DNA of 57,972 nt, the filler included, from Ionaspis alba (taxonomy: Eukaryota): assembly GCA_964255285.1 (NCBI GenBank). It is 3 parts of 3 records of this genome, joined end to end, with 100 filler letters (N's around TTAATTAATTAA, not from the genome) between each part and the next. Parts side by side here need not be neighbours in the genome. Positions count along the whole stretch, not along the records: positions 1 to 19,266 come from CAXUUL010000269.1; 2 more parts are not named here. One strand, 5' to 3'. The stretch's first letter is position 1. Each line of letters opens with the position of its first letter. Shown here in pieces: positions 435 to 41,982 of the stretch. Under the pieces are notes generated by a model. The model had not been told where the DNA came from. It worked only from the letters and a program-made list of their open reading frames with translations, and made no database searches. The position numbers and the translations under genes are program-made.

Positions 435-492
435 TCAAAAACAACTGCTCGAGTAAGTCTCTTTTCAAGCAGCAACGACTACCCTGAGCAAG

Positions 493-583
493 TCTGACGA
501 TCTCCCAGGCCGTCCGTTGGGCCTTGCCCAATGTTTTCAACCCGCTCCCGACACCCTGCGAAGGTTTTAACCAGTTCAACTTG
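493..583 (+). pseudogene. Truncated relic of exon 2 of the same secreted-protein family
   Basis: Translates as SDDLPGRPLG(+1 frameshift)LPNVFNPLPTPCEGFNQFNL versus FDDLTSRPLGLPALLNPPPTPYRFLAFPSFNV in paralogue 2. Similarity is lost afterwards. Confidence 0.6.
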
Positions 584-1993: not shown

Positions 1994-3229
1994 GCAGAAC
2001 TTCAGAGAGAGGGTGGTATGGTGGCTTTCGTGGCGAGGGTTAGAGGATGCAGGGAGGCGGCCGGGCAATCGGAGTAGTCTGGTATTTGGGGAAAGGGCCT
2101 TCCAACTGCTCGTCGCTCGTTAGCTTGCTTGTTTGTATATCTCACACTCATTTGTCAGGAGGTGCTTCATTTCCAGGCTACGGAGCCGTAGTCATGTCAT
2201 CTATATTGCCAATGAGTAGACCTCTTTAATTGAATGTAGCCCATCGTGGAGGTCTGAATGCATGATGATGTAAGATCCTGCACTTGCGAAAGTGTGATCG
2301 TAAACCATTAAGGAGGGAATCGCCGTTGGCACCATATTCTTCTTTCTGGCGACGGCACAGAAGTTGTTTCCTGTTCCCGCACCAATCCGTGAAGGCATTC
2401 CGAGATGGTGGGTTCGCATACGGCCAACCTTTGTCGTGAGATTAAGGAGTTCTTGAGGAAGAGAATTTTCTTGCTTGATTCGGTTGTTGATAGATGCATC
2501 GATCGACACCCCACGCCTTAGCGTCATGCATGCTGTGCCTATTTTGACCACGAGTCCCCGAAGCCCGAAGCCGTGCTTTCCCTCCTAGCGTCATCTGCGC
2601 GCCATCCTGTTCTTACACCGTGGACGGATCTGAAAAGAGAATGTGGTACTCACCACGACATCCACGCGAGGTTCCAGATGATCCAGATCGTTCGGCGCTG
2701 ATAGCCAATCATGAGCCGTTGCAAGCTCTGATCGACATAATTCCTTCATCATCCATTCTCGTAATATATGATCGCCCTGCGCCGATAAAGGGGTTCGGGC
2801 GCGAGCATGACACCATAAAATCCTGGTCTTTCCTCATAGATGCAGTAGGTGGTGTGAGAGACTTGAGTTCTGACAGATTGAGTGAAGTCCGTGAATAGCA
2901 GGGTTCGAGCAGTCTGGAATCCTTCAGGCAAGGGACTCGGGCTGAATATGCAGTGAATGACGACCGGTGATTAGCATGGCGAGTATGCCAGCATTTCTTC
3001 GCCTTCTACAGCCGAGCAGACCATGGGGAAGCTGGCCTGCTGCCGCTCCTTTGAGAGTCGAAGGAAAGGGCAGGATTCGTGGCGTAACTCAACGTAGGAG
3101 ATTATAGAACAGAACTCTTCGACCAGCCCTGTTGCGCTTCATCAAGTCCTTCATCCTCCCAGCTTGCCAGCGCGAATAAAACTTTGCAATCAGCCTCATC
3201 GGGTGTTCTTAGTCAACAACCTCGTCAGG

Positions 3230-3947
3230 ATGGTAAGACTCTCCTTGTTCTTTGCTCTTGCAGCATGCCTGCTGCTCATTCGAGTTCGAGCGATACCCAC
3301 AACAGGAACCACTACCACCACCCATGTCATCTGCAATTTGAGTTGAGCCTCCCTCTCATGTCGAAATTCCCTCTGAGTCTTTCCAGTTTGATGACCTGAC
3401 GGCCAACCCTCCTGGTGTTCCAAATGTCGCCAATCTACCTCCTGTGCCATACAGCAAGATTGCCTTCCAGGCCTTCTCTGTAACGAACGTCAGCGGTCCT
3501 CTGTCCTTACCAGCTCACAGTCCCACCAACGTCATCACCTCTGGCATACGTTCCTCGGTGACCTCGGGGCAGGCAACCATAACTCGTGATTATGTCAATT
3601 CTCGAGTCACCAATTTCGACCTCTTGACGGCCTTCATCGCTTGCAAGGTCGCCACCTCTGGAACAGGAAATTTCGCGCAACCATGCACATTGCGTTTCAT
3701 TGCTACAGCAGTCACTGGAAGAACAGTGATCTTCATAGCGCCGGCATACCGACCCGGAAGCCTGTTCGCTCCAATGCAGAAGATTGTGTTTCCGACGACC
3801 TTCAGGCAGCTTGTTAAGTTCGTTGTAGTAATTCAAGATTCTTCCACTATGCCCGTCGCAACATCATTTGCATTAAATGATGTGGAATTCCAGATCTATA
3901 GCACCCAAACAGAAATATTAGATTTCGGAAGAGTAGGGCCATTGTGA
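3230..3947 (+). CDS. Small secreted protein, paralogue 3 (intron donor reads TTGAGT; may be damaged)
   Basis: Signal peptide MVRLSLFFALAACLLLIRVRA. Acceptor CAG at 3386, then FDDL in frame with ORF 3444-3947, homologous to paralogues 1 and 2. Confidence 0.7.
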
Positions 3948-4454
3948 AGATGACCCAGAGGTAAGACGACGTCTTGGGAAATTGGGATCGCGATTTTCGA
4001 GGAATCGAAGCTTGGTAAATTGGATTGTCCCTTACTTCAGAGCCTTGATTGCGCGTCTTTTCTGCGTGACAGACTGTCACCGGTGTTCCACTGTACATTC
4101 ACTAGAAGATCAGGTTCTTGAGATAGCACTTCAGAACTGCTATCCCATTCTCACCCAGCAAGTAACTTCTTATCCATATTTCAAACACCATATATTCTTT
4201 ACCAGCAAGTGGTTGTCCTAAGAACAACGAAACCGGGAGAGATCAAGAGGCGCAATGAAGTTCAATTTCACTTCCCAAAAACACACACATGAGAACATCG
4301 TTCGGCCGGAATTTTGGCACCCGAGTTCTAAACCCCTTATCCGCTCAAGTCCGTCTACTGAAGTATTTGATGGTATGAGTCTCTTTGTGGAGCTGATGGA
4401 ATGGAACATCCACAGCAATTAAACTTATAAGGCTTCGGCAGATTCTCCTAAGTC

Positions 4455-5478
4455 TCATTTTTCGAGACCCTTTGCCTTGACGAATCGAGCTATCTGATCT
4501 TTGCACGTTTTGTCGCTGTATTGCTCCCACACCTCGTAGAGGGAAATGATCTCTTGCGTGGCTTCGATAACTGCCCTGATATCAACCTCGCCCTCGGCAA
4601 GCCACTTGACAAGATGTTGCACTTTCCCTTGCGCTTTAGTCGACGGAATTTCATCAGAAGATATGCCATCCTTGGCGCCTTGGACCGCATTCGCTAGTGT
4701 TGTGGCGGTCGTTGCAGCAGCTTGGAGTCCTGATTGCGTGGGTTTGAGCACTAATGTCATAAAGATGGCTGTAACAGCAATTACGTGAGGAGCGAAGAGA
4801 AGCCCAAGATCTGTGAGAAAGCTATCGTTGATAATGGACCAAGCTAGAGCGACCTCATCTTGCGTCATGTCCAGCGTGCTTTGCAGTGCTAGGAGCGTAC
4901 GATATGGATGATGCACAATGAGTTGGCAGTTCATGGCCGATATAAGGAAGAATTCGCACTCCCCAATCTTTGAGATATCGGACACGATGAAGTCTAGAAT
5001 TATCTCTAGTCAATCACTTCGGTCTGTAAATGGAAAATCTTACCTGGCCACATATTCCGAGCCTCGCTAACAACCACCCGGATATGTTGAGGACATTCCT
5101 CCATTTTGCAGGCAAGATAGAATGCAGTTGCTATGACGAGATACGGATTGGTATTGCGAATCTCAACTTTGATATAGAAGCGTCGGATGTAGACCTGAGC
5201 CGTGGCGAGTGCCTGCTGCCTGACGCCGAGACGACGTCCCAATTTTGCCAATTCTGGCACGAGCTTCTCTCAGTATTTCGTAGACTGTCGGCAGAAGGTT
5301 CCAGTGCGGCGAACTTACGTTGGCTAAAGAATATGCTCAATAACCTTCGATCAGAGAGTCCATATTGCTGCACAAGTGTAGAATCACCCTTCTCAAGTGC
5401 TGCTCTAATATCTGAGAGGTTTTCTCGACTGAACAGCCAATGTTGACGCTGTGTCGAAGCCCAATAGTTCGCAGCCAT
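4455..5478 (-). CDS. SSN8: Cyclin C, Mediator CDK8-module subunit (Ssn8/Srb11)
   Basis: [32 protein letters not shown]...[13 protein letters not shown] and [10 protein letters not shown] across three ORFs joined by two introns. Confidence 0.95.
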
Positions 5479-5953
5479 GGCAGAGAAAGAACAAATTGTA
5501 TTGCAAACGGTTTTCTTCTCCTTTAACGGAAATCAGAATTGTGCTCCGTATTAGCGACAATGGCAAGTACTCTAGCCATGAGTGGACTAACTGACTGGAG
5601 TCACCGTAGACCCAATGAGACAGAATTCCTAAACATAATATGAATTCGCTCGGAGGAAAACAACTTCTCAGTCATCGGTAATGCTGGTGTTGTTGGGAGA
5701 AAGTACCAGGCGGGATAATGGATCATAAGGCTGATGAACGACATCCTTGTCCCCAGACCCAGAGCCTGGATCGACGACCGAAAGCAATTGCACTGGACGC
5801 TCAACCACAATCCTCTGGGTGCGCCAATCAGTCTTCCTGCCGAGTCACTGTATCTGGAAGCTGTTGCAACAAGCCAGCTAATTTGGTTGCGTGTCTCTCC
5901 GGAGAGTAGAGCGATGAAGGATCATAGATAACGCGGGGACGGCGCGCTTTCTG

Positions 5954-8093
5954 ATGGAAGGGGAGTCGTTAAGCACACTGGATGCTAGGATTGAGAAACT
6001 ATGGAGGACTCTGGATACTCGGAACGAGGGGGAGCTAGATCTCAAGGCTTTGAAGAAGGGTCTACAGAAGATGGATCACCGTGGGTCAAATGCTTCACGG
6101 GCCTGTATTGGAGGCTACAGATTGCTGATCGGGCCTGTAGCTCTCAAAAATGCCGATGAACTGCTCAAAGATGTTCTACAAGTCGTTGACACCAGTGGCG
6201 ATGAGCGAATACAATACTCCGGTAGCATGAATACTCCGAGCCATCTTGGCCAGTGCTAATATGGCGGCTCAGAATTCCGTACTTTCGTGGCGCAGACAGA
6301 GAAAGAGCTTTGGCAGCTATTCCAGAGCATAGACCGAGATCATAATGGTCAGCTCGATAAGGAAGAGTTACAGGCAGCATTCAAGAGAGCTGGTCTCAGG
6401 ATACCTAATTCAAAGCTCGACCAATTCTTTGAAGAAGTGGATACCAACCATGATGGAGTTATCAGCTTCGACGAATGGAGGTCTGTTATGAGTTGCTTTA
6501 CATACTATATATGATGTCTCTGACGGAGACAGAGACTTTCTTCTTTTCCTTCCCACTGAGGTCCCAAGTCTAAGAGCTGTGTTTTCATATTACTCGTCAG
6601 CAACGATTGTCAATCCCGAGGGTGATGTGCATATAGCAGATGAGACAATACAAGGCCTAGGTAGAATCCCCTTCCTTCAAAGCATGTTTGGTGCTATCAT
6701 TGCAATTGCGCGACCGCCTACCGGAGTCCAGCAACCCTATGGCGCCCGTCCCGCCGCACAACAAACATTTCCACCAATACTACACTCGACCCTCCCAATA
6801 ACAGCCCAGGACTCGAAACCAAGGTCTTTTCCCTGGGACCCAGGAGAATCATCAACGCTACAAGAAATGACGCTCCCAGACCCTAAAGATAGTTCTGGCA
6901 ACAAAAAGAAAGTCCTCTCGCTGACAGAGCTGTTGCCTGCTCCAGGATATTTCCTCGCGGGAGGGATCGCCGGTGTCGTTTCTCGCACAGCAACAGCGCC
7001 TCTGGATCGGCTGAAAGTTTACCTTATCGCACAGACAGGCACTGTCAAGAAAGAGACGGCTGAAGCAGTCAAGTCTGGTGCTCCTATCCAAGCAACTAAG
7101 GTTGTGACGCGACCGCTGATTGACGCGACCAAGACGCTATGGAGGATGGGAGGAATGCGAAGTCTGTTTGCTGGTAAATTTCAGCATCTACTGAGCTTGA
7201 AGACATTTACTGATTGTACAGGTAACGGCCTGAACGTCGTAAAAGTCATGCCAGAGTCGGCAATCAAGTTTGGGTCATACGAGGTAGAGATGTGACCGTC
7301 GTTTTTGGATATCTGTTAATTAGCACTCAGGGGTCTAAGCTAGTCCTGGCAAGACTTGAAGGACATAACGACAAACAGGCGCTTCATCCCTGGTCTCAAT
7401 TTCTCGCTGCAGGCATGGGCGGCATCATTTCTCAGTAAATTAGCCACAATCAATTCAGTACGTCTTGCTGACAGCAGCCAGATTCTGTATCTACCCTCTC
7501 GATACCCTTAAATTGTCAGTAATGATATCTTTTGACACTCACTTGTCTCAGTCAAAGCTGATATATCTTGTAGCCGAATGCAGTGCGAGACCATTCAAGG
7601 CGGACTTCGAGGTAACGCTCTCATAATTGATACCGCTCGTAAGATGTGGACCAAGTCAGGCGTACGCTCTTTTTACCGCGGCTTACCGATGGGACTTGTT
7701 GGAATGTTCCCCTACAGCGCAATCGACCTAACGACATTCGAGTATTTGAAGCGCTTTGTCGCCTCCCGCAACGCCAAGAGTCGCCGATGCCATGAGGAGG
7801 ATGCCGCGCCCGGAAACGTCATGACTGCAGGAATAGGAGCATTCAGTGGAGCATTGGGAGCGTCTGCCGTCTATCCGATCAATTTGCTGAGAACAAGACT
7901 ACAGAGTCAAGGGACTGCGATCCATCCACCCACCTATACCGGAATCTGGGATGTGACAGTGAAGACGATCAAGGGGGAAGGCGTCCGGGGTTTGTTCAAG
8001 GGCATCACGCCTAATTTGCTGAAGGTCGTTCCTGCGGTGAGCATTACTTACGTGATTTATGATAACTCGAAGAAAGTCCTCGGATTAAGATGA
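5954..8093 (+). CDS. SAL1: Ca2+-binding mitochondrial ATP-Mg/Pi carrier (SCaMC family)
   Basis: Four EF-hand-like loops ([36 protein letters not shown]) plus carrier signatures TAPLDRLKV and [12 protein letters not shown]; multiple introns. Confidence 0.93.
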
Positions 8094-8395
8094 AAGATGG
8101 GTGGCCGACGACTTCCGATACATTCCATATGTACGGAGTCTGAGATTGTCTTCCGGCAGTCTGGTGTGGCACATGTAAGATGACCACGATCACGTGGACG
8201 CCTTTGTTCATTTCAATACAGTGAGCAAGCATTTCAAGAAGTGTTTCACTATCAGCATAACTGATACTACCTGTACGCGATTTACCGCCGTGGCCTCTTT
8301 GTACATAGTAACGAAGATAGCATTCCGATAGAATGTCACGCACTCAATGATCAGGTGAAATTCTTTAGAGCTCTATCATTTTCAGCTCCAAAACT

Positions 8396-10204
8396 CTATT
8401 CATTGTATTTCTCCTTCAAATTCTCTGCTTTCACAGTATCCGCGCGGTCCCTGTCCTGAATCTCATCAACCCTGTTCAATACAGCGACCCCCTCTACATG
8501 CCCTGTCTGAGGGAAGAAGTCAAATCCCCTCAAACTTTCCACATTATAACGCCACCCTCCTTTGCCCTGCACCAAGACGCCAACGTCCCTCGCTTGCGTA
8601 TGCACGTTACAGCTCACATATACCACTCTCTTTGGCCCATAGCTCAGCAATTGCTTCAAGAAATGATCATCGCACCCCTTCCTCGGTGGATCGATAATGA
8701 CCGCTGTCTCCTCGGCAGGAAACTTGACCTCTTTGAACAGTGCCGAGGCGTCAGCTTCCATAAAGGTGGTGTTGGCGATGTTATTTCTTTTGGCATTCTC
8801 ACGAGCAGAGACGATGGAGGCGCCGGCAATGTCGATGCCCATCGAGGATATAAAGAGAGAGGAGAGAGTCACGGTGAAGAGCCCAGAACCACAGTAGGCG
8901 TCGATGAGATGCTTGATTGGCTTCTCAGAAGAATCGGACTTGGTAGGAAAGACATTGTCGCGAATGTAGGCGGTGAAGCGGGATAGTATGGAGTTATTGT
9001 TCTGGAAGAAAGCCCCCGCTTTATTGGTGAGGATGTAATCGTCGATGTATTCGACTGAGGTAGCGTTGGAGTCGGTGATGCATGTCTTGGTCTCGTAGTA
9101 CTCAGGGTGTGACGTCGTTGTCTCAGCTTCCGTAACGTGAACTGCGAGAAATGTGTGTTTGTGGAAGCCTGCCTCGTTCTTCTCATCAGCGTCGGCACCG
9201 ACGTACTCAGGATCACGCTCGCTTGTGCCTCTTGCTCTTGCCGTTTCGGGTTCCCTGGGTTTCCTAGCTGTAGATTCCCTCAATAGAATAGTCGCTCCCT
9301 TCTTGTACTTTGATAGCTCGGATACGACTCTACTTCTCTCCCTCTTCATCCCTAAATTGAGGACCTGGGTACCAATGGGACATTCTTCGATGTCAATGGT
9401 CCATCTTGTGTTTTTCTGCATGAAGCCTATTGGAGGGACTTCGGCGAATCCACGCCTTCCAGCGCCTGCTCGTCTGGCTACTCGTCCCATCATACCAGGA
9501 GGTCCGTCAAAGTGTGGTGTCAACTTGGTCCTGTAACTGTACTGTAGAGGCGATCCAATGGTATCTCCGATCACGGGGACAAGCTCCGGAAGGAGCATCG
9601 AGAAGTTCTTGTAGGCTCGTTCAATGATAGTCTTTTTGTGAGAAAGCTGATCCTCGTACGATAGCATCTGCAATTGACATCCTGAGCACTTGGCGAAATA
9701 TTTGCAGCCAATCCTGGTATCATCCCTTTGTGGAGAGGGTTTTATGACTTTAATCAAATCCGTGAGGGTATAGTTGTCTTCCGCAACATGATTTATAACC
9801 TTAGCCTGAACAACATCTCCAGGTGCAGTAAAAGGTACAACATAGACATGACTCGAGCTGGACGACAGGCCGAGACCATCTCCGGTCGAAGACAATTCAG
9901 ATATCTGTACCTCAATCTCGCTGAATCTCTCCGGGGGAGTATAGGTCGCGTCAGACGTTTCTTCGCTGCTCTCCCTTTTCAATGAAAGACTTGATAGTAA
10001 TCTTTGTACATCTACTCGCAGAACTTCCTCGTTAGTGCCTTTTATCAGGCCTCCGTTCACGGATGTTAATCTTTTCTGTCGCTTCGTGGAGAATTTGTTT
10101 TTCTTAGTTCCTGCCATTGTCTGCACATAGAGGCTTGATCTGAGCACAAGTCTGCACGCTCTCAGACTTCTTAATGTTAAAAATATGCTTGGGAAACGCC
10201 ACAT
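8396..10204 (-). CDS. TRM2: tRNA (uracil-54-C5)-methyltransferase
   Basis: TRAM region, CKYFAKCSGCQ Fe-S motif, AFFQNN, IDAYCGSGLF, DPPRKG, YVSCN, FDFFPQTGHVE. Confidence 0.93.
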   Translation of the reverse strand: MWRFPSIFLTLRSLRACRLVLRSSLYVQTMAGTKKNKFSTKRQKRLTSVNGGLIKGTNEEVLRVDVQRLLSSLSLKRESSEETSDATYTPPERFSEIEVQISELSSTGDGLGLSSSSSHVYVVPFTAPGDVVQAKVINHVAEDNYTLTDLIKVIKPSPQRDDTRIGCKYFAKCSGCQLQMLSYEDQLSHKKTIIERAYKNFSMLLPELVPVIGDTIGSPLQYSYRTKLTPHFDGPPGMMGRVARRAGAGRRGFAEVPPIGFMQKNTRWTIDIEECPIGTQVLNLGMKRERSRVVSELSKYKKGATILLRESTARKPREPETARARGTSERDPEYVGADADEKNEAGFHKHTFLAVHVTEAETTTSHPEYYETKTCITDSNATSVEYIDDYILTNKAGAFFQNNNSILSRFTAYIRDNVFPTKSDSSEKPIKHLIDAYCGSGLFTVTLSSLFISSMGIDIAGASIVSARENAKRNNIANTTFMEADASALFKEVKFPAEETAVIIDPPRKGCDDHFLKQLLSYGPKRVVYVSCNVHTQARDVGVLVQGKGGWRYNVESLRGFDFFPQTGHVEGVAVLNRVDEIQDRDRADTVKAENLKEKYNE

Positions 10205-10416
10205 AAGGACGGCATTGCAGATTCGGCAATAAGGGCGCTTCTACAGCATGCGGAATTTGGAGACCGCAAGCACATATTTGATAGGGCTGTCGGAGTTTCC
10301 CGGTGATTTTCGCCGTGATTTAACTCCTAGATATTCCCGAAATTCTTTTCCATGGGTTCCGAGTTCCAAGTCACTACTAGATATAGAAGCCCACTTGTAG
10401 TTTGACTGTTTCCAAG

Positions 10417-10895
10417 ATGAGCGTGAGTCCATTCCGATCTACGGCCAACGGTCGCAATATCTCTGCTGACCTTGATTCACGTAGTTCGCGCCCAAGAATC
10501 CGCGGCCCATGCTGCAAGATCTGTACGCCAGACCATCTACGCACTGTCTTTCCCTACTGATATCTCTTTCCACTTTAGAATCAACGAGGAAGTGATTGTC
10601 CGCCTAAAGTGGGGGCAAACAGAATACAAAGGCCGTCTGATCAGTGTGGACTCCTACATGAACATCCAATTATCGAATACGGAAGAATTCATTGATATGA
10701 AGAGCACTGGAAGCTTGGGTCAGGTCTTGATACGGTGAGCTCGATGAGGTGGTGGAATGTCTCTTGACAACAAAGAAGTCTACCTCTTAGAGTGACGGAG
10801 CTTAGCTGACATACTGGGTCATGGACAGGTGTAATAATGTTTTGTGGATATCAGGCGCGAAAGGAGCAGAACAGGACACAAAGATGGAAGGGTAA
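10417..10895 (+). CDS. SMX3: Small nuclear ribonucleoprotein F (SmF)
   Basis: Spliced product [54 protein letters not shown]...[15 protein letters not shown]; three introns. Confidence 0.93.
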
Positions 10896-11098
10896 GAGGA
10901 GGGACAAGGGAATGGCAGGGCCTCAGAGTGGTATCAGAGGCTTAGAATGGAGTAGCAGGCTCATCACAGCTACAGCTAAGCCACTGGAGCAGGAGTGGGT
11001 GTTGAAAAGGATCGGGAAAGCATGAAATACTACTGGCGCAGATTTCGAGAATTGAGATACCCAATCCATTGAACCAGATCTCTCCAACCTCGAGAAAA

Positions 11099-14000
11099 TC
11101 ATTCCACCTCCTCAATGCGAGGTCTGGCCATGGGTTCTACATCCAAGCTTACATCCAGTCCTTTCAGCTTTCCCTCGAGTCCAAGCCTTATTTCCCCTTC
11201 TTGCTCTCTCCGTCTTCGACCCCCAAATAGACTGTTCTCTCGCCAGGTTTCCATTCCTTCCAGCACTTCTCCGAGATGACCCCTCACGATTTCGTCCGGG
11301 TCGTCCCGAAGTAGGCGATGCAAAACCTCAATCACATCTTCCAGGCTCCCCCCGGCTAGCCCAAACCCCAGCTCTCTCCCCTCTTCCTCCGCTCGATCCA
11401 AGGCTTTGATAAGGCTCATGAAGACTAACACAGCTGATCGCCTCAAGATAGCCTTCTCGGGCGTCTGCTCGAATCTCAGTATCGAAATCGCCAGATCAAC
11501 TGCGGTGGAAACAAGGGGAGCTCCCATTGCTGCAATATTCGTCTCAATCGTCGATCCCAGAACCGAAAGCGCAGAAGCTCGAATTCGAATATCCTCTTCT
11601 CCAGCTTTACCCTCCCAGCTCTCGAGGACTTTCGACAGTCTCGCACTAGCTTCGTCAAGTTCCTCGCCATCGGAGCCAAATTGCGGAACACTACCACCCC
11701 ACTCCCTCTCCGCCTCACGCTTCTTTCGTTCGTGGGCTTTGATCTGCTTATTTTTGTTCTCGACCTCTTTGGGACGATGGCCCCTTCGACCCGCTACCAG
11801 AATCATACCCTCGCCTACTGACGTCGCCGCATGCCGTGGTAGCGCCTGTCCAAGTGCTTCAACAGTCGTCTTCAAGGCTTCGCCGATTCGTAATCTTATA
11901 TCCAGTCCACTCTCCTCATCCCGGTCGGCATATCGGTCCACAAGCATACGAGTTACGGTGTTGCTGTGACGGTGAGCGAGCAGACCGAGGGCTTTGATAG
12001 CAGCGAGGTAAATGAATTCCTCATCGTCTTGAAGGACGGATAAGAGTAGTACGGTTGTTGTTGGTACATCGATGACGGGCGACGAGTTGTCTATGAGCTT
12101 TGAAAGGAGTGAAAGACCTTCGGCACGAATTGGCGGCAGCGGAGAAGTGAGGTGCTGCAGGGCCAGGGTATGATTGGCCCGAGCCGCGGTAGATTCGGCC
12201 GACGGACCTGTTGCGGAAGAGCTGGATGCTGCAGACAGTAAAGAAGATATTTGAGCAGAGATGTTTGCAATTGAGAGGCGTACGGAGTACGGAACATTTA
12301 CTTGCGTGCAGACAATATCGAGAATTATCTTCTGAATAGATTTGAGTGTCGAGGTTGTCGTGGGCTTAGGTGTGAAACCCGGGGTGGCAAGAACAGCGGT
12401 CAAGATGCTAAGGGACAGTGACACTAGTTCATTCGATTCCTCGATAGCAAGAGACGTTTTTCTTGCGGTATCGTCTTGAACAATGGTGCCAAATTCATTC
12501 AAAGACAATACTGGCGAATCCGTTGATCTTTTGGGACGTCTCTGGTTGTGAGTCAGGCTGTTCTCAAGAACTTGCTGTACCAGGTCAAGAATTCCGTCTG
12601 GCTGGGAAGTGATTGTCTCCCTGTGTTCCGCCAACATGGTCTGGGCCATCTTGGCGTATGCCAGACTAGAAAGAGGGTTGTCCTCCAGTTTATTCCCGCT
12701 TCCAAATTCGAGCTGGCCTTGCTCATTTTGAGCAGGAAGCAACCATTTTCTGGTGATGTGCAAGAAGACTTCACCGATTTCTGCATTGTCCGCTGCTTCC
12801 CGAAGCAGGAGAATGAAAGTTTGGACATGTACATCCACAGTATGCATTATCTTTGTGATATCATTTTCCGTATGAAGCGGATAATCCCGAGCACGAATCT
12901 CAACATTTTTCATGTCACCTGTTAGACAGAGTTGAGAGCTATCGTCGTCCCAGATTAGATTATCTGCTAATCGAGCCAGACCGTCCGTGCCAGCAGATAG
13001 CTTCAAGTATGTCGAAAGAAGCTGTAAAGTCTTCGTACGCCAGATTGCTTGCGCTCCAGTATCATTGGCGAAACATAGGAGACGCCACAATGGGAGCAGC
13101 AAAGGAGCTATAAGCCTCTTTACAAGGCCAGGATTTGGATGAAGCAGTGTCAGGGCAGTAAGCCGCTGCAGAGCTCGAGCTAGCTCTGTAGCAGAGACGA
13201 TTCTATCCTGAGGTGGTTTTGAGAACTGAGCTTCCCTGGGTGATTGCTCCTTAGAGTTGGGGCGCAAGGATTGAATGATCGGCTCTGCAAAAAGTTTCCA
13301 ACCCACAGCCCCGGGTGCGCCATAAACCTGACGACCAAGTATACCATTACCAATGATGTATGCAGCCGTCCGTTGCATGCTAAGGTCATTGTCGTCGAGA
13401 AGGCTGAAGAGCTGCGGCGCCAGAGCTTCAAAGTACTCGTCTGCAGTCAGCTTGCTAGGGACAGACGTCAACAACTTCGATATATGATTCAGAATTTCCA
13501 GAGACAGAGCAGGTCCTGAAGATGCTGCCGGCATAGAATCCCCAGCTTGTGTTTGGGGACCAGTACTTGCTATGAAATCAATGGTGTCACGAACGCCACC
13601 AGCGCGAATAGGAAGAAGGGACAAGCCTGTGGAAAGAGGCGGACGGAGCCAGGGCGGAGTAGAAGGGTGTAACAGGGAGGTCAGAGACGAGAGGAGGATT
13701 GGGGTTGGAGTTCTATCACAGCTCTCAGCTCTTGAAAAGCTCTGTATATTTCCAAGGGGGACATGTAAAGGGACCACAAAGGCGGAATACCGTTCCCATG
13801 CAAGAAGGGGACGCATACCCCTGCAGAAGCAAATCAAAGTCACTGCTTCGAGTTTGAAATTGAGTTGCAAATGGAGAAAAGACAAGCTGGCCCATTGCAG
13901 CGATAAGATCGACCAGCGTTCGATCTAAAAGTATGCTGCACAACCCTTGCCCTGAATCGAGAGCAATAGACTTGAGTTGCCCAATGATTTCCGATAGCAG

Positions 14001-14478
14001 GCTCTCCGATCCCGCAGAGCTGCTTTTCACATCAGCTGACCTCAAGGTAACACCGCCCTGAAGTACGGATTTCACCCTTCGTTCTATTGGCACTCCGACG
14101 CCGGGGAGAAGATTTGGATAGATTCCTTCCAGCGAAATCAAGTCAAGTAATGCATCAATGATTCGTCGCGACTTCGAATTGTACAAAAGCTCCTTGATAC
14201 AATTTGGATCTGATGAAGCTCTTAGAGCAGTGTGAATACTCGATAGAAGAGCCAGAGCCTGTCGAATAACCCACGCTCTGGAATCTTCCTCGCTCTGAAC
14301 ATGAGTGTCAGCACCACACATCAGCTGCTCAACAACAGACTGGCCCCGAGCTTTGACAAGAGATTCTGATTTGATATTAGTAGCATAATCCCAAAACGTG
14401 GGTCAAATGAAATTCACCTCGCCGTAGGACTGGGCCGAGGAAGGAGCCCGCCGCTCTGAGCTCGGCTTCTGCTATCAT
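11099..14478 (-). CDS. RTP1: RNA polymerase II nuclear import/assembly factor, Rtp1/TANGO6 family
   Basis: HEAT-like protein with LTSPLPPIRAEGL, LLSVLQDDEEFIYLAAIKAL and EDIRIRASALSVLG. Upstream exons lie in 13725-14321 with a short first exon from ATG 14478. Confidence 0.85.
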
Positions 14479-15168
14479 ATTGATAGATTAGAAAGCACGA
14501 ATAGGACGACCTCCTGTACTAGTGTCACAGAATCTAGAGAGCGGTCAAGTCTACAGGCTCACTGGTTCGAACTCGAGAGAAAACGAGTCGCCAGGAGAAA
14601 CAAGCAATTCGACTCGGCCACAGAGACAAGATGTAGGGTCGGAGCACGCGCCCAGTGTGCTTGTCGGGTCTGTAATCGACCTACGACTAAAGGGATCTCC
14701 TTGCAGAACGGGTACGATCTGACCACGGCTGGTGCGTCCTCTATTCTTCCCAAATCATTGAAATAAGCTTTGGGTTCTGTCAGCCCTCGGCGTAAGAGGC
14801 GAAAAATTTGGTCATCAGCAACTTCCAATGTTTGTGATATTCCATAAGCAACACTGAGAGAACATGATTAAATTTGAAATAGTTTGAGCGTCTTTGATAC
14901 GATTTATCATAAACTCTTGGCATGGACATATAGCTCAGCCTTACAAGCCAAGTGTGCTAGCGTGATCTTACTTGGCGCGTCGAACAACAGTCGCGTCTCT
15001 AGAGAAACTCCTTTTCTATTTTCTACCTTAACTTCAGCAACTTTCATTACCATCGCTCATCGAACTCATAGAAGTAGCGAACGCATCTCATATCTCTCTG
15101 GATCATCGATCATATCATCATTGCCCTCAATTGCAGCAATTACGCGTCAAAGCCCCAGTTCATCGAAG

Positions 15169-17627
15169 CGTCCCGTCCACAAGAGTCTCACTTCCAACAA
15201 ATCTCTCGCTCCAAAGGAGCAACACAAAACACAAGCAGCGCACCTTCCCCACAGTCCCCCGTCTCTCATCTTCCAGCCTTGAGCAAGGAAAGTCTAAACG
15301 CCCCTCGCATCCACCTGCACAACTTGTTCCAAGCACTGCTTCCCGAGCCTCGCAGCACGGTCTCACATGGGTCACTGTGCCTTGGGCAGCGCGTGCTGCA
15401 GTCGCCAGACTGTAAAGGGTATTGCGGGGAGGATGAGTTTCGGAACTTAACCCTAAGTATTCGTCGGTCGTCTTGCGGTCATAGTTGTCTACTCTCTGAT
15501 TACCTTTTTCGAAGTCTTTGTTCGGGTTGGTTGCGAAACTGATCTGGGTCGGGATGGAAGGAAGTGAAAGGAGTGCTAGACGTCCAGAGCCTTTCGGGCA
15601 GCAAATGGATTTGCCATGCGTCTTATTTGGTAAGATTCCCTCAAGGGGACGCGCTACGGTATTTCCTGCTGGACATCACACTCTGGTCATCTGGGATGTT
15701 CCGTTGGATGTGTAGCGTGAGATGAAGATCTGGAAGAGATTAGGTGGGACTGGTCGGATGCCTCCTAACATCGAGGTCGTCTTATGGATCTTCACTAGCC
15801 GCCTCTGGTTCTGCCTAGGCTCTTTGACTTTCTGCGGTTTCATGCACTTTCTCCGAAGGCCAAATACCTGGGTACTCGTGACCATGGAGGCAAGTGTCAT
15901 CACTTTCTCACCATTGCCTTCGATTCTGTCAATGGCGTTCGGATCTCAGGCGACGTCTTTACGTCTTTTGAAGAGACTACGAGCACATCTGCAAATTGCC
16001 TGCAAACGAGCTTCAAGTTAAGCGTGTATCATCTCATTGTCAAGAGATCCACTCGTCAGAATCGTGCATGTCGAAAGCTCGTCGAGCTATCATTCATTCT
16101 AAATATGCATGTAGCGAGGTCTCTAGTCTACAGACAGAAACACGCTTGACTTGCGGCTGCTCTCGGTATGATTACTGACAACGGTGTCATCTTTGTTGAG
16201 CTTATGGCCTGATGTCACGCTCCGGGTAGTCTTGGAAATGATGAAAGCCTAGCCTGAGTGAGGAGCGTCAATGTATGGCATTGGGGTGACGAGACGTCGA
16301 GGCACTTGGGGTACTCCATGGTAACAGCACTAATACCCACCGGCTGGATGAGGATTGTGTGATCTGCCGCGGTCACATTGCTGTGAAGGGACTTGAGACG
16401 GTGAAGACGTCCCGTACCACTCCCCTCTTGGCATGAGAATCTTGTATTCTAAGCCATCCCTAACCTCCACTTCACCTTCAGCATCACATCGTTTCCAACA
16501 ACGAAGCTCGCTCGCGGAGTCTACACTACAGCACCAGCTACCAGTGTAGTTGTCATTACGACAAATCCTGACCAGCCGCATCAGTCACCTCCTCATGTGT
16601 TCTTCACAAGGGTCGACTGGTGAGCGCCGACATTATCGTCCACCGAGTCTTCACCGACTCCATGGACACATACCTCTTTCGAGAGATGGAAGCGGTTTTT
16701 GGCGATGTCCTTTGTCCGTTTATCAATTGCCCTCCTCGGATGTTCTTCCGACTCCTTGGAGAGGAAACAAAGACTTGTCGTTGAGGGTACTGCACCACAA
16801 AACGGAGAGATCCTCCCGTCCTGGGGTCTTGGATTTGAGATTCGGACGAGATGTGGAGTGTTCTTGGTTTCTATGATCGCTAGAGGCTGCAATTGGTGAT
16901 GATGCTGGTCGATGGGATGAAGGACAAGATATTGAGGAGTGCCGACTGCTCTTGATTTCGTTGTTCGAGATGTATGAGATATTGTTTATGGTGGTAGGAT
17001 ATCCGGTCTCCTTGTCAACTTCGTGGCATACCAAACTCTACCAACTTGTGGAGATCCAGCGGAACCATCTCTGTTGCAGACCCCAGGGATTTTAATCTCG
17101 CTATTTGACAAGATTGTCCAGTCACGACTATAACACAACGCTACCACCATCGACCCCAGAGATTGCTACCTCTTCTGATTCAATGTATGGCTGATGCAGA
17201 AGCGAGAATTAGGTCTGTTGGAACAAAGGGAGCAGCGGATACATGGACGGGACCTCTCTCGAGTGAGGATCAAAGCTTAGTGCTTGTCTGCTCCTTGGAT
17301 CTGCCCTTTGCAACCCGGGCTCTGTCTCTCGTCATGTTCGGTCATGGATTTGTGAGGAAGAAGTCAGTGGTATCCGGGCAGGATGGCAGCTATTGTGGTG
17401 TTCGGGGCAGTGAAGGCAGCTTGCTCGCGGCTGAGAGGAGGACGTTACGGAGTTGGGGTTGCTGGGTTGAAATGAGCTATGTGGGGAATGGGACGTCGGG
17501 GATGTCGATAATCGAGAGGTATCTGGGGCGGGGAAGAAGTGGTGGGACGGCCGAGGAGGCTCACTGTCGTCCTCCTCACGCGTTCCCTTGGGGGTAAGCG
17601 GGGAGGGGACGACGACCATCTTTTTTT
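15169..17627 (+). ncRNA. TER: Telomerase RNA (TER); 5' end approximate
   Basis: Template TAACCCTAA at 15448-15456 after hairpin AGTT-TCGG-AACT. Pseudoknot at 16685-16782 and CR4/5-like junction at 17227-17296. Nested 5'/3' helices (15245-15253 with 17480-17488; 15274-15287 with 17420-17433). ATCTTTTTTT + ATAAGT + GCTAAC at the 3' end. No credible CDS in the region. Confidence 0.88.
15448..15456 (+). other. TER template (1.5 repeats complementary to TTAGGG)
   Basis: TAACCCTAA, the 9-nt template permutation reported for Neurospora-type TERs. Confidence 0.85.
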
Positions 17628-17681
17628 ATAAGTCCATCGGATCTCAAGAGCAAGGTTGCAATGGCTAACTACCAAGATTAG
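17618..17681 (+). other. TER 3'-end processing signals: Sm-like site, AUAAGU 5' splice site, branch point, 3' AG
   Basis: ATCTTTTTTT at 17618-17627, ATAAGT at 17628-17633, GCTAAC at 17664-17669, AG at 17675-17676 and TAG at 17679-17681. Confidence 0.82.
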
Positions 17682-18265
17682 ATTCTTGGGGCTCAACTCT
17701 CCAGCCGCGCCCCACCAATAGTCACCGAACTGCTCAGATCGTCTCGAAATTAGCACGTTTGGATTTTCCGTGCTCCAATTTTCAAACCATATGATCATTT
17801 TGAAATAGCCCTATCCAGGGCAAGAACAGTTGGCGCGAACAGTGGGAAGGACAGTAGTTGGTATACGTAAGTTCAGAGTAGTGAAAGATACGATTCAGCA
17901 TTCTGCGGTATGGGATTTTCGTCCGCCCTTATAGTGTACTATCAGTCATAGCAATTCAGATATGACAGCTACGAGAACAGTGAATGAAGACAATTAATCT
18001 ATAGGTTTATGAGCCATATCCTCGCACTTTGGCGTTTGGCTGTGTCTATATCTGTAGTCCCGGTCTCAACAAAAGAAAAGCACCCATAGCACTGGGTATT
18101 AGGCATCGGGTATCCAAAACCCTTCAACTGCAAAAGCATCACCGTATAAAGACAATCATAAATGCCGCTCGCTATGCCGCAACAAGGAATGACTGATATG
18201 ATCCACGAAATTATGAACACGTAAAAATTGATAATCTGCACAATAGCATCCACCTCACAAGCTTC

Positions 18266-19266
18266 TCACCGTCTGAACCGCAATCGCGGCACCGCACTCA
18301 CCACTGCCGTCGTAGTCGTCGTACTGGCAGCCGTAGTCGTGGCACTTCCTGCGGACGTAGTCGTTACCGCCGCAGCACCACTAGCAGACGGACTACTGGC
18401 AGCGGGCGCGGCCGTATTCGGGCTGACAGTGGCCGAATTGGGCGCATTCACACTCGAGCTCGCAGCCGCAGGCTCGTAGTGATAAACGTCCAAAAGACTG
18501 CCGGCGCCACAGAACTCGCGCTTGTCGCCCGTGCACAGCATGTTGCAGTTTGAGATATCCACGGTTGTGGCAGTAGTCGGCAGGGATGCGGCACAGTAGC
18601 ATTCTCTGCCATACTCAACGCCTGCGTATGCTTGACTGGGCGAAGCGGAAGAACAGAAGGAGACGCAGGACTCGACGGTCATGCCTGTGGAGTTGCTGTA
18701 GCTAGGACCAGTGAGAAGTCGACCGGCGACCTCCTTGTAGCAGCCTTTGTTGACGTAGTTGCCCGCTGCTTTCACAGTCGTGGGCGGGACGTAAAGCGTA
18801 TTGTTGTACACACTGAGGCGGGAAGATCCACCGCATATCTCGGACGAGTTGCCGGTGCAGAGCATGTTGCACCCGGTCTGACCGACGGCAGAATAGCTGC
18901 CCAAGCCGTTACCGCAGAAACATTCTTGGGCATATTCAACGCCAGCAAGTCCATAATTATTCTTTGTGCAGAATGCTTGACAGGCTTCGATGGTCATGCC
19001 CGTTGCGTTGGCATATGCGGCGCCGGAGAGTGCGCGAGGTTGGGTCTCGTTTGCGCAGCCGAGATATGCCCAGTTGTTGATGATTTGCCCGGGAGTAGGG
19101 AGATAGGTTTGCGCAGAAGTGGTGGTGGTGGACGTGGTGGTAGAAAGAGGGGCGGTCGTTGTTGTTGTTGTTGCAGGCGTGGATGTCGAGGCCGAGGAGG
19201 CGGTAGCGGCTGTCGTAGAACCACTGGTGGCTGTGTTGGTGGTTGTCGTAGAACCACTGACTGTTG
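18266..19266 (-). CDS. WSC-domain protein (two C-terminal WSC domains after a Ser/Thr-rich linker), 5'-truncated by gap
   Basis: WAYLGC...MTIEACQAFC...AGVEYAQECFCG...CNMLCTGNSSEICGG and a second copy AGVEYGRECYC...CGAGSLLDVY. The frame is open to the N-gap. Confidence 0.88.
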
Positions 19267-21739: not shown

Positions 21740-22618
21740 CTCATCGTAAGAGACCGGCTTCGGGTCTGTCAGAGCTCGTAGTCGCAGTGGAGATGGCGGG
21801 ATGCTGGTTCTTGTATTAGAGAATTTTGGTACGTGTTGTTGCTTGGTGAAAGAATGGTTGTTGATGCGTGGGAATAGTGAATAATGCTGCTGAAGACTGT
21901 CGAGTTGTGGATAAGGAACGTGTATGTGCAAAGAGTGTGGATTGACGTTGTCGTCTAAACATGTACCATTCCCAGTATGTACAGAGTAGCAATGGTAGTC
22001 CGTGTCGTGTACTAAGTCGGGGGCATCGTGGTTGTTGTCGAGGTCGACCTTGACGATACTCGGAGCATTTGGTGGATACATTCTTTTGCACCCCCGCCCG
22101 GTTGGCCAATCCTGCTCGCTGACTCTCTGTGTTCAGGGGTTCCAGTGCCAAGGCTTTACCGCCCGCTACCTCGTTGACGTCGGCGGCCCTGTCTTTCTTC
22201 AACGGCGTCTTCGAGTCACCTCCTCCTCGTCGAGCAGGAGAACCAGATATCAAAGAGCCAAAGGTAGCATGGGAAGCATTGTAGACTGAACAACTTTATC
22301 ACAGACGGTAAACTCCTCTGGGGCAGTTTCGCATGCTGGCATAACATCCCGGTGGGCTTATGCCAGCTTTCACTCAATTACCCTCCGCCCGGGGGGGTTG
22401 GTTTCGGGCTTTTCGGGAGGCTGGGGACGAGGAGTTTGTTGTTCGCTCACCACACCACCATCTATCTATTGTACTGTATTCTAAATCCTATCTCCTATCA
22501 TGCGCCCGGAATCATACACGTCCGCGACGCTCTCGAGGGACGCGCGCGCATTGGTTTGCTCACACAATGAGACCTTCTCGAAAGCGAAACCCCTGACAAT
22601 CGTCTGACATTCTGTTAC

Positions 22619-25600
22619 TCAGAACTTGTAGCCTCTAAAAACCTCGTTTCCCCTTCGATAGATCGCTTCCATCCACTCCGTCTGCACTGTGCCTCTCGGT
22701 CGCGATTCTTCGATCTGGTTATCAAGCCATTTGATTGCATCCCCAAACTTAGTCTGTTTGATGCCCAACACATGTCGGAAAGCCATGGCCGCCATCCTGC
22801 GAGTCATCCAACATGTTAGCCAAACTGTGTTCTTCTTCTTCCGCGCTTAGCCTCTTCCAAAAGTGGATTCGTCTCCGGTCTCAAGATCGCCAAGACAGCA
22901 ATGTGATATCCGTTGATTGTGTATGCTTACCATTGCATCTGAGCCTTTGTCACCGCACACCGGTAATCTAGCAGCTTGCCGTTCTTCTGTTTACTCTTTA
23001 CAAGGACAAAGGATAGGTCGATCACATCCTGGATCGTTCCTGTAGCATCAAAGTAGACATCAGTTCGAATGCGAGCAAGACTCCAATGCTGCCTCAGAAG
23101 CGAAGGAATTCTCGAGAATTACATACGTCTAAGCAAAGTGCTTGGAGGTTGCTGTGCTCCCCCCATCGACTTAGCATATCGATAGAACTTCATCGCCGAC
23201 TCCATAAAATTTTGATAAATGGTCACCAAAACTGTACTCGGAGAATTGAATGACGTGTCTATGAACATCGCATGTGTCTGTATCTTGATCGCACTGTCGC
23301 GAGAAGACGATCAGTAGCTTTTTCGAAGATGCCATGTTGTGCTCCACTTACTTCATAGCTTTGCGATGAAAAGACCTGCCCGGCACTTTCGATATCTCCA
23401 CTGTAAGTGAATCGGCAAGCACTGTCATGACGCGGTCAGCTTAGTCGATTTCTCCTCCTTGTCCCAGACATACCTGTATCAATGCGCCGATCTCTGTCCT
23501 TGGTGAGATCTAGGGTTGCAGTGTCGATCATAGTGCCACAATAGGGGAACGCTTTATCTCCGGATAGACGTGGGATTCGTAGACCTCGAAAGGTGTAGTC
23601 GAAGTTCGTGAGAGTCTTTTCCGGCTTGACTTGAATGCCATAACTTTCGTTCCCAGCATGCATGATGTCGAGGAACTTGGTAGCATGCCTCTTATTTGTA
23701 GAGATGAATAGAAAGTCGTCAATGAGTCTTAGCAGCACATTGTCTCCTTCATCGATGAATTCTAGGCACTCTCGCTCGAACTCTGCGTAGAAAAAATTGC
23801 ACAGGATGCTCGAAAGCACTGATCCTTGCGGAATTCCTTGCTTCTGTCGGAAGAACTTCTTCCCAATCTTGACAATATTCCTCTGCACATGCTCCCGTAG
23901 AAGGTTGAGTAGCTGTTCCCTTTTCAGGCAAGTTTGCACAACCGAGTCCACAAAAACCGTGCCTTTCTTTCCAACCGCTAAAGTCTGATCCAGGACCTCT
24001 TCAAAGGCCGCAAAGTCCTCGCTTGCTCGGGCTGTGGCGATGAACTTCCTCGTTGGCTTGCACTGTCTAATGGCACGAGTCGATTGGTAGCCGTGAGATT
24101 CGCTCGATCTGATTTCAGCATGTCGAGTGATGCGATACTCTTCCTCCGAACAAAGCTCTTCTATCAACTTTACCGCTCGGCATTGAGGAATGGTATCGAA
24201 ACAGGATTGTACGTCAACTTTTGCAAAGTAAAGGGTTCTGCTCGTTCCATCTCTGATATCGAGGCGTGATCGAAAGGCTTTCAATCTCGGATAAATGTCT
24301 CCAACCGAGAAGAGTGCAGACCCAAGGCGATCCGGCTGTTGCAGTCTTTCATAGCTGAGCATATTGAAGACCGGTGCCATTACAGCGTTAATGCTTCTTC
24401 CCAAAACTGCTTTCCCACTCTGCAACTTCGTGACTCGGCGCCGTAAATTCATGATGGGTCGTACGCCACGTGCTTTAGGAAGCAGCCGGATCTGACTGAA
24501 TCCTATGGTTCTAGCATCAAGCACCTTCCTTGCTTGGGTTGTGGACATCTCCTCGAACATGGAGAGCTTGATTGTCGCCAAAGATGGTTCCGTCAGCGCT
24601 CGCCAAAGGTCGTGGCGGAAGTAGAAGATGCGGTTTCCGTGGGCGTTGGATTCGGTGACGTGGAAATTGGATCGAATGAGTGGGATGAGTATTGAATCGA
24701 AGACGTAGTAGAGAAACTCGAGGAACAGCTCTTTGCGCTTGTCCATGTCGGACTTAGAAGTCTTAGAGCTCATGAGGGTGTTTGGGGGTATCAGCCATGG
24801 TATGTGACATATCTATGCCTGAGCTTAGTATACCAAGTGTATGTCTTTCATTAAGAGTCTGTCACCTTCATTTTCTGAAACACGTTGTGCAGCGTCAAGC
24901 TCTCAAATCTTCTCAGTCGCACAAACTGGTTGACGGAGTGCAGGACAGTACTTCGGTTGCTTTCACCCTCTAAGCCTTCACCCCATAAATCATTCGGTAG
25001 GAGGTTCAGAAGAACGGCTCGACAGAATGCTGATACATGTTCAGGTGGAGTGGCAGTGTCCACAATGGAGCCTTTCTGAATCTGATCGTGTTCAGAAACT
25101 GTTTGGTCCTCTATTTGTTTATGCTGAGACCGATTAGTAGATCTACGTTTGCCTGTCCTTCGTTGGCGTCGGCTCGTGTTGTCAAGTCGCTAGACGAGCA
25201 ATATCAGCGGGTGCACCATAAGGAACGCACTCTGATCGTACTTCAACAGGACAGTAGTGCTTCAGCAGTTCCGAGTAAGAGCATCGACCGTTGAGCTGCT
25301 GCATACGCTTAACCAATTGCAGGACCTGTCCTCGCAATCTCTTTGGAAGGCTTGATTCGTGGAATTGAGACTTAGTACCACGCCTGAACTGATCACCCCG
25401 AGCATTCGAGAGAATCTCCTGCTCTCGAAGTGTGTAGTCTTTGAAAGGATGGGTGGTTTCTCTGCTATTCACGGATGTTGTGAAGACGTTGTGTAGGCCA
25501 AACTGTCTTGGGAAGATGTACTTCAGAAGATGACGAGTATGGCCCGGATTCTTGTGATCTGGAAATCGGTTCAAGGCGTCTGGAATCTTAAGTTAGGGAA

Positions 25601-26805
25601 GCATTCCATTGGGTACAGGACGACATACGAATGTGACGCAGGCCAAATCGAACTTCTCCTTTTGCGTTCAGCGCCGCACGTGCATACATCATTCGGCTTC
25701 GAACAAAAGTAATATGGGTAGGCTTATGGAGTACTGAAGACACAGCCTTGCTCCGTCCCGAAGAGGTGGCGTTGTGAATCGATGGATGAGGTTTAGAGGG
25801 CTTTGATTTGTCTATCAGTGGCAAATCTGACATTGGTATGCCTAATAAAGACACGTGAGATCAAGCTAAGATCGTAATGGCAATAATGGTTTACCGGATA
25901 ATTGATAAAAGTTATCCCTTCCTTGATCCACAGGAATGAAAATGCCACAATCTAGGATTAGTCCAAGCATGATCATCTCTCCCTCTCTACCCATGATATT
26001 GAGAAGATCGGTCCAAGTAGCTCCTTTGATGTGAGACACATGGGTGTTAGGGTAAATGGAAGTCAAGCCTGGGATGCCGGCAAAAGGACAGCAATCCTCA
26101 ATACTGTATTTCGGTGGACCTGCGCGCTGGTATCCATGACACAACATATGTGGTGGCTTGTGTTCGCTTCGATGCATTTTGTTGAACAGCAGCCATATGG
26201 CGAAGTCGACTACCTGAGCTAGAGTCAGAAGAGAGCAGAATCGTCAACCATCATATCAAGCAAGCGCGCATTAGGCCACAAGTCCTTGGCATCAACCACT
26301 CTTGTGGTTTCAAGAAAGTGTTCATACTGACCTCTGACTGCGACGAATTACCTTCTCCGAGACTGCTCCGCATGGTTGACCCAGTCTGCTGGGAGAAAGC
26401 CTCGAAGTCTCTTCTCCGTGAAGAATCGGTTCCTTTGAGCTCTGTACTGTGAAGGCCAACCAGTGTAGCGCTCAATAGCTTGGCCAGCCTTAAACTGGGG
26501 TCCTCATTATTTCGCTGCAATCCTCCTCCAGCATCCTGAGCTGCTTGAGCATTGACAATCTGGCTTCGCGTAGATGCATCAGATGATGGTTTAACAAGAG
26601 CACTGATCTTCCTCCTGCGAGATTTTGATGTTTTTGGAAGCCTTGATAAGGCATATTCACCAAGTGTCATGACTTCAGGGTAGTACAAAGTAACAAGAGA
26701 CCTCGTCGGGCCAAATGAATGACATGTGACCGCTTCATCAATCTTGAGACGCTTGCAAGGACCAGCGTGGCGATCGCCTTGCGAACGTTTCCTCTTCCGA
26801 GCCAT
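22619..26805 (-). CDS. EST2: Telomerase reverse transcriptase (TERT)
   Basis: TRBD (KYIFPRQFGLHNVFT), T motif (FHVTES..NRIFYFRHDLW), motifs 1/2 (IRLLPK, RPIMNL), A (FAKVDVQSCFD), B' (GIPQGSVLSSILC), C (LLRLIDDFLFIS) and E (FPYCG); about 9 introns. Confidence 0.97.
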
Positions 26806-41833: not shown

Positions 41834-41982
41834 TGCCTTTTCAGAATAGCTGTAGATGTGTTTGATAGCTGGCGCAAAACATGGTGACAAAAACCTTGGC
41901 TCGGAGCTTCCTCGCCGCATAACCCTAATCAGTTCTCGTCACCTCTCTACTCTACTTGCCCCCATCAAGCGTCACGAATGTG

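Follow-up and report, generated by a model that had tools for sequence, protein, structure and literature searches.

Background

Telomerase RNA (TER) is a known kind of long non-coding RNA that is often overlooked by routine annotation. In Schizosaccharomyces pombe the RNA, TER1, is a long transcript of RNA polymerase II whose 3' end is made by spliceosomal cleavage, as is predicted here for the RNA under study, and both in TER1 and in TLC1 of budding yeast a long arm arises by pairing of the 5' region with a remote 3' one, a layout that again resembles the one described below. Fission yeast blocks the second splicing step by other means than the A at intron position 1 discussed in this paper, the budding-yeast junction is long and dispensable, and the yeast template and telomere repeat differ from those considered here. 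The subject of this paper is a region next to the gene RTP1 within a 57,972-nucleotide stretch of DNA from Ionaspis alba (GenBank assembly GCA_964255285.1), referred to as the window, which joins three parts of three records end to end with 100 filler letters in between (positions 1 to 19,266 come from CAXUUL010000269.1, and parts that stand side by side need not be neighbours in the genome). Judging from sequence comparison, this region is very probably the plus-strand TER gene of a Pezizomycotina-type ascomycete, oriented divergently from RTP1.

The closest described systems are the TERs of the Pezizomycotina and in particular that of Neurospora crassa, for which the parts of the report used here (Qi 2013, PMC3592445) give the order core-enclosing helix, boundary helix, template, variable arm, pseudoknot with an inserted helix PK2.1, and P5/P6/P6.1 junction, with the template near nt 440, the pseudoknot at nt 1289-1515 and P6/6.1 at nt 1826-1864. 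The window has the same order, with distances of the same magnitude, and its 9-nt template, 5'-UAACCCUAA-3', is identical to that of N. crassa. The same report describes conserved islands in fast-evolving spacers as the pattern for these RNAs, and the TER of Mycosphaerella graminicola as the largest then known, with 2425 nt, a length that the 2.46-2.6 kb of the window RNA would match or exceed. The TERs of the Aspergilli (described in the parts used of Kuprys 2013, PMC3603654, and Kannan 2015, PMC4299874) likewise have a U-rich Sm-like tract, AUAAGU and GCUAACU, a yeast-like boundary helix, a pseudoknot with U and A tracts, a compact junction and an intergenic position with conserved synteny. 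Outside the cores, however, the window cannot be aligned with Pezizomycotina TERs and matches the Rfam model only locally.

A plus-strand gene of the Pezizomycotina type

In the whole window a single Rfam family scored above its gathering threshold, namely RF02462 (Telomerase_Asco, Ascomycota telomerase RNA), which matches positions 16692-16779 on the plus strand with 38.4 bits against a gathering score of 30 (E 7.8e-8). Around this match all defining elements of a TER were found on the plus strand in the order of the family, as had been claimed, for several of them without coordinates, in the first-pass annotation, which read the region as the TER gene of the species and looked to covariance models and to covariation among relatives for confirmation. 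That reading is supported by the Rfam match at the pseudoknot, by the relatives, and by compensatory changes in the core-enclosing helix, the pseudoknot and the junction. The features are the following, all on the plus strand.

14974-14999, plus: CGCG-containing boxes GGCGCGTCG and GTCGCGTC, a possible promoter element
15040-15232, plus: probable 5' leader, rich in C and A (C 32%, G 14%)
15235-15244, plus: 5' strand of the core-enclosing helix (GCAG-CGC-ACC, with a 3-nt loop), pairing with 16786-16793
15245-15252, plus: conserved junction UUCCCCAC between core-enclosing and boundary helices (consensus UCCCCcAC)
15253-15447, plus: template-boundary helix with its 179-nt arm, from the consensus match and the structure of relatives
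15448-15456, plus: template, 5'-UAACCCUAA-3', 1.5 repeats, which would specify TTAGGG
15457-16689, plus: long variable region from template to pseudoknot, with little similarity to relatives
16690-16779, plus: pseudoknot, from the RF02462 match and covariation
16786-16793, plus: 3' strand of the core-enclosing helix (GGU-A-CUGC), seven bases after the pseudoknot
16794-16990, plus: segment that probably pairs with the 5' leader and so lengthens the core-enclosing arm, from cofold tests
17228-17293, plus: P5/P6/P6.1 three-way junction (CR4/5 homologue), homologous to model positions 1656-1690, which are annotated there as two hairpins
17376-17560, plus: G-rich (47% G) 3' extension, absent from Eurotiales-like relatives, which holds the 3' arms of the closing helices proposed earlier
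17566-17613, plus: terminal hairpin just before the U tract, from a scan for inverted pairs
17621-17627, plus: U7 tract (Sm-like site), from sequence, relatives and published signals
17628-17681, plus: predicted cleavage-only intron (AUAAGU 17628-33, GCUAACU 17664-70, AG at 17675-76 and 17680-81)

The template is embedded in its expected surroundings. The stretch CGGAACU-UAACCCUAA-GU is identical to the family consensus, and so is the longer UCGGAACU-UAACCCUAA-GUAU, in which UCGGAACU, the 3' strand of the boundary helix, abuts the template and equals the Rfam consensus. The boundary helix itself consists of AGU 15253-55 with ACU 15445-47 and CCG 15259-61 with CGG 15441-43, so that it ends at the base before the template, and it continues beyond a 3x3 internal loop for 10 bp (15265-74/15428-37). 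Its upstream strand ACAGU-CCC-CCG (15251-15261) corresponds to the consensus ACAGU-UCU-CCGA, whereas the extension, which reads CCAAUU/AAUUGG (6 bp) in relatives, is CUCAUCUUCC/GGAGGAUGAG in the window, i.e. the structure is kept with a different sequence. The spacing of the two boundary strands is 174-194 nt in each of the four sequences with both strands, close to the 178 nt for which a tetraloop could be substituted in N. crassa (Qi 2013, PMC3592445). The core-enclosing helix has the geometry of model positions 208-219 with 1388-1397, and the corresponding helix of one relative (locus L001), GCAC-GUC-GCC/GGC-A-GUGC, carries two double compensatory changes with respect to the window. The junction UUCCCCAC recurs in L001, L002 and L004.

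Two further observations concern the template. The sequence TAACCCTAA occurs twice in the window against 0.19 expected from shuffles, at 15448-15456, where the first-pass annotation had placed the template, and at 41920-41928 on the plus strand; the latter site was considered as a TER template and rejected, for it has neither a boundary-helix flank nor an Rfam match, lacks every other element, includes a TAA that bounds a 180-aa open frame, and looks like chance. Secondly, 15432-15446 and 15530-15544 are complementary at 87% over 15 nt, a pairing that would loop out the template and compete with the boundary helix and that is not evident in the relatives by eye.

The pseudoknot follows about 1.25 kb downstream of the template. 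PK1 (16690-95/16716-21) encloses a U5 tract, the third strand at 16696-16700, and the CUUUGU strand, which pairs with a downstream ACAAAG in PK2 (16704-15/16767-79); PK2.1 (16730-35/16758-64) is inserted. The U and A tracts suggest a potential U-A.U triple helix. In an alignment of five sequences, three of which are close relatives, 95.7% of 115 cells agree with the pseudoknot pairing, a share that falls to 41.7-53.0% if the partner is shifted by 1-3 columns; both sides are changed in three pairs, and the covariation score was reached by none of 500 shuffles. In the variable region, the AAGUCUU box at 15512-15519 matches the consensus AAGUCUUGCGC. The box lies within an 11-nt perfect complementarity, AAGTCTTTGTT/AACAAAGACTT (15512-15522/16766-16776), in which this box, conserved and situated some 57 nt beyond the 3' end of the template, faces the A-strand of the pseudoknot; it is a possible alternative pairing, in competition with the annotated 5' strand of PK2.

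About 500 nt downstream of the pseudoknot lies the junction, which is vertebrate-like. P5 is formed by 17247-49/17287-89 together with GGAG 17228-31 and CUCC 17290-93, P6 by 17250-55/17264-70, with two double changes relative to the consensus, and P6.1 by AAGC-UUAGU-GCUU (17272-84), i.e. by a 4-bp stem with a NUNGN loop of the kind shown to be essential (Qi 2013, PMC3592445). Over the same five sequences the junction pairing holds in 89.5% of 95 cells versus 30.9-47.4% when slid, with nine pairs changed on both sides, counts in which the structure was derived from the alignment that was counted.

Relatives and conserved islands

Metagenome contigs were scanned with a pattern made from the Rfam-matched segment, which yielded six loci (L001-L006). 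Since L001 hardly differs from L005 (99.86% identity) and L006 is contained in L002, the number of distinct sequences is four. RF02462 is matched over its full length by L002 (1212.7 bits), L003 (876.9) and L001 (676.8) and, as in the window, only locally by L004 (47.4 bits). L004 (1-2057) constitutes a second divergent TER lineage, with its Rfam match at the pseudoknot only; it has variants in common with the window, namely CCUUUGU/ACAAAG in PK2 and GACCU..GAGGAUC in P6. The template lies 809-982 nt upstream of the pseudoknot in all four loci that reach that far.

In addition, two related organisms each have one contig with three collinear islands of similarity, which cover the template (15334-15506 in the first and 15412-15468 in the second), the pseudoknot (16570-16801 and 16683-16715) and P6/P6.1 (17248-17291 and 17245-17280), separated by DNA that cannot be aligned at 80% identity. 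To name the islands, we read the Rfam model's structure lines in its alignment with L002. These lines also led us to reject an assignment of the Rfam-matched segment 16692-16779 to the P6/P6.1 junction, since they place the pseudoknot there and the junction at the third island. The conservation in relatives that the earlier reading implied is found for the template in the four loci that reach it and in both related organisms, and for P6/P6.1, as an island, in both related organisms as well.

One sequencing run (X2) contains, besides a diverged contig of its own organism (depth 38), short contigs (depth 2-6) whose identity to the window is 99-100% over 14923-16527; these look like carry-over between samples of one study.

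Genomic position

The gene occupies a gap between RTP1/TANGO6 (minus strand, 11099-14321 and a first exon beyond, by Pfam in its fungal window) and a WSC-domain gene (minus strand, 18266-18997, by Pfam). The first-pass annotation had described this gap as holding short open reading frames only, which agrees with the list of frames: the longest has 144 aa and a TTG start, the others are shorter, and among nine of the longer ones (94-144 aa, both strands) the sole Pfam match at E<=0.1 was one of 0.097 that fell below its cut-off. L001, L005 and L002, the three loci with sufficient flank (which the other three lack), each have a homologue of RTP1 upstream in the opposite orientation, so the divergent arrangement is old.

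The two ends of the RNA

An RNA extending from 15169 to 17627 had been proposed, of which the 3' end stands and the 5' end is doubtful. Position 17627 is the base directly before ATAAGT, and the mature 3' end is predicted to lie in or at the end of the U tract, with trimming that may extend into the tract. The 5' splice site AUAAGU and the branch site GCUAACU, 36 nt after it in the window, are those described in Aspergilli (Kuprys 2013, PMC3603654). In three of the four distinct relatives (L001, L002 and L003), AUAAGU directly follows the last position of the Rfam model and GCUAAC comes 33-36 nt later. The U7 of the window abuts the splice site and is without the CGGC3-5 prefix and the GGAGG spacer of L001-L003, in which a small GAGGG..CCCUC hairpin occupies the place of the terminal hairpin. 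From P6.1 onwards the tail measures about 340 nt in the window, as opposed to about 160 nt in L001 and L002 and about 185 nt in N. crassa (Qi 2013, PMC3592445, in the part used), a difference that is due to the G-rich extension.

With respect to the 5' end, the segment 15184-15212 (GUCU...CGCUCC) resembles model positions 186-207, and as homology thus reaches back to about 15184, the RNA should start upstream of it. The distance from the start of the model to the core-enclosing helix is about 200 nt in L001 and L002, and the same distance would lead to a start near 15030 in the window. The proposed leader is moreover complementary to the segment that follows the core: cofolding 15040-15232 with 16794-16990 gains -60.2 against -28.9 +/- 5.5 in shuffles (z -5.7, 0/100 as good), and the part upstream of the proposed start, 15040-15168, contributes on its own (z -4.0, 0/60 as good). 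The signal vanishes for 14900-15039, and it is present in L002 (z -9.6, 0/50) and L001 (z -2.4, 1/50). A stricter duplex test with block shuffles gave a weak result, with 15 of 200 shuffles as good and the best partner at the expected place. Model homology and the complementarity of 15040-15168 both tell against a start at 15169; the 5' end probably lies upstream of it, somewhere within about 15020-15185, and our best guess, held with low confidence, is about 15025-15040. The mature RNA would measure about 2.46 kb with a start at 15169 and about 2.6 kb with a start near 15025-15040, the latter being more likely.

As to a promoter, L001 and L002 have TCGCGT/GCGCGT boxes 9-53 nt upstream of Rfam model position 1, and in Aspergillus oryzae a CRCGDCGCG box is found 39-48 nt upstream of the TER (Kuprys 2013, PMC3603654, in the part used). 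The latter has no exact match in 14400-15300 of the window, where there are only looser CGCG boxes; those at 14974-14999 resemble the boxes of L001 and L002.

Complementarity between the boundary arm and the 3' tail

The first-pass annotation had further proposed that four nested helices between the 5' and 3' regions (15169/17549, 15245/17488, 15274/17433 and 15300/17408, the 3' coordinates being the last bases of the arms) close the molecule. The complementarity is real, the nested closure is not upheld. All four helices occur in the unconstrained minimum-energy fold of 15169-17627, within some 16 collinear helices, and the complementarity of the two regions is moderately above that of dinucleotide shuffles (3/200 and 0/100 as good in two tests); taken singly, the helix pairs are unremarkable, as 2.7 kb contain 58 inverted pairs. 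Helix 2 would occupy the conserved junction UUCCCCAC as well as base 1 of the template-boundary helix. Helices 3 and 4 fall within the boundary arm and so cross the conserved boundary and core-enclosing helices. With these conflicts the arrangement cannot be nested.

What might remain of it, although we consider this unlikely, is a lineage-specific long-range pseudoknot or alternative conformer in which 15263-15330 of the boundary arm contacts 17375-17452 of the G-rich extension, with the conserved core retained. When any partner within 15448-17620 is allowed, 15263-15330 forms its best duplex with 17375-17443, with 1 of 200 block shuffles as good, and the wider segments 15169-15330 and 17376-17560 gain -79.2 kcal/mol when cofolded, versus -59.8 +/- 5.7 in shuffles (0/100). 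The extension is specific to the lineage, and the partner that the tail finds in the constrained fold is at chance level: this alternative, an extension of P5 pairing 16998-17227 with 17296-17525, was rejected, as 14 of 60 shuffles did as well. On the other hand, the pair of segments was chosen after the fold had been seen, a strong local helix of 10 bp at the foot of the arm (15265-74) overlaps it, and the contact is based on one sequence and is not seen in L001 or L002. A yet more far-reaching version, to which we give slightly less credence, is that in this lineage the TER acquired a G-rich 3' extension, about 180 nt long, which forms a duplex of about 40 bp with the boundary arm in its 5' half, as a long-range pseudoknot or switch connecting the 3' end to the template boundary, and that this TER is in addition encoded within about 6 kb of the gene for telomerase reverse transcriptase (TERT). 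If true, the extension pairing, the linkage to TERT and the length of about 2.6 kb would together make an unusual TER architecture.

A native fold in which at least four nested helices join 15169-15330 to 17376-17549 and enclose template, pseudoknot and CR4/5 is improbable. It can draw on the same shuffle statistics, on the unconstrained fold and on the C-rich composition of the 5' part and the G-rich composition of the 3' part, but this composition already supplies much of the energy (shuffles gain about -55 to -60 kcal/mol), and the closure conflicts with boundary and core-enclosing helices that are conserved in sequence, spacing and covariation. Furthermore, pairing between arm and tail is no better than in shuffles in L001 (47/50) and L002 (29/50), where the arm pairs with itself instead (0/50 shuffles each as good); a fold begun at 15040 gives helices 1 and 2 other partners, and when the conserved helices are enforced in it the energy is only 10.6 kcal/mol (about 1%) worse.

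Identity of the locus

Several points weigh against the assignment as a TER gene. The Rfam match is local, covering model positions 1285-1381, i.e. 97 of 1858; the elements outside it were assigned by our own comparison with four distinct relatives, three of which are mutually close; and in L004 the core-enclosing and boundary helices fit only partly, while the 690 nt that L004 offers beyond the pseudoknot show no AUAAGU. A telomeric array with which the template could be compared was not found within the window. Two other identities were weighed. The locus might be a TER pseudogene or a second copy, with the working TER elsewhere in the genome, yet every element is intact, the position beside RTP1 is conserved as in the relatives, and the functional islands are kept in two related organisms while the spacers diverge, which makes this very improbable. 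Ordinary intergenic DNA (promoters, untranslated regions) with chance motifs can be set aside, for even though a 9-mer and short helices can arise by chance and TAACCCTAA does recur at 41920, such a reading is already contradicted by the Rfam E-value of 7.8e-8 and by six independent elements whose order and spacing are as expected and which show covariation, synteny and conservation in relatives.

TERT and other neighbours

Counted along the joined window, a TERT gene lies on the minus strand at 22600-26300 (TEN domain 25866-26243, RNA-binding domain 24851-25189 and 23436-24812, reverse transcriptase domain in 23436-24812), convergent with the TER and about 5-6 kb from its 3' end, which places both telomerase core subunits in one 11-kb stretch. 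One search of the literature gave no report of TER-TERT gene linkage, and this would be, to our knowledge, the first linked telomerase core locus. TERT, WSC, RabGAP and SBE2 had no match in the six relative loci at E<=1e-3, where the downstream flank is only 2.5 kb. The window has WSC, RabGAP/SBE2 and TERT as downstream neighbours, whereas A. oryzae has Zpr1 (Kuprys 2013, PMC3603654, in the part used); a peptidyl-prolyl isomerase is among the genes given there as syntenic with Aspergillus TERs. The window contains a cyclophilin-type peptidyl-prolyl isomerase with WD40 repeats at 36350-37747, about 19 kb from the TER.

Mechanism and meaning

Expression of the locus, binding of its RNA by TERT and templating are predictions, modelled on published work in Neurospora, Aspergillus and fission yeast. 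The core-enclosing helix ties the template region to the U/A-rich pseudoknot, and TERT would bind the template-pseudoknot core and P6/P6.1 and copy the template into TTAGGG repeats, with the boundary helix halting the copying at 15448. The first splicing step would cut the precursor at 17627/17628 and leave a non-polyadenylated 3' end in the U tract. Cleavage without ligation is proposed to result from the A at intron position 1, which would block the second splicing step; this A is needed for spliceosomal cleavage without exon ligation in Aspergillus (Kannan 2015, PMC4299874, in the part used).

The TER family is well described and a standard Rfam scan already flags this locus, and the finding leaves the known working of fungal telomerase RNA unchanged. 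What it provides is an annotated TER in which template, pseudoknot, P6/P6.1 and cleavage site have coordinates that can be put to use: they allow telomerase to be reconstituted, or the template to be marked, with the TERT of the same window. The variable arms of the family are poorly understood, and the finding contributes a further, divergent lineage; it also shows an RTP1-TER neighbourhood that is conserved across distant Pezizomycotina and that aids in finding TERs where sequence search fails.

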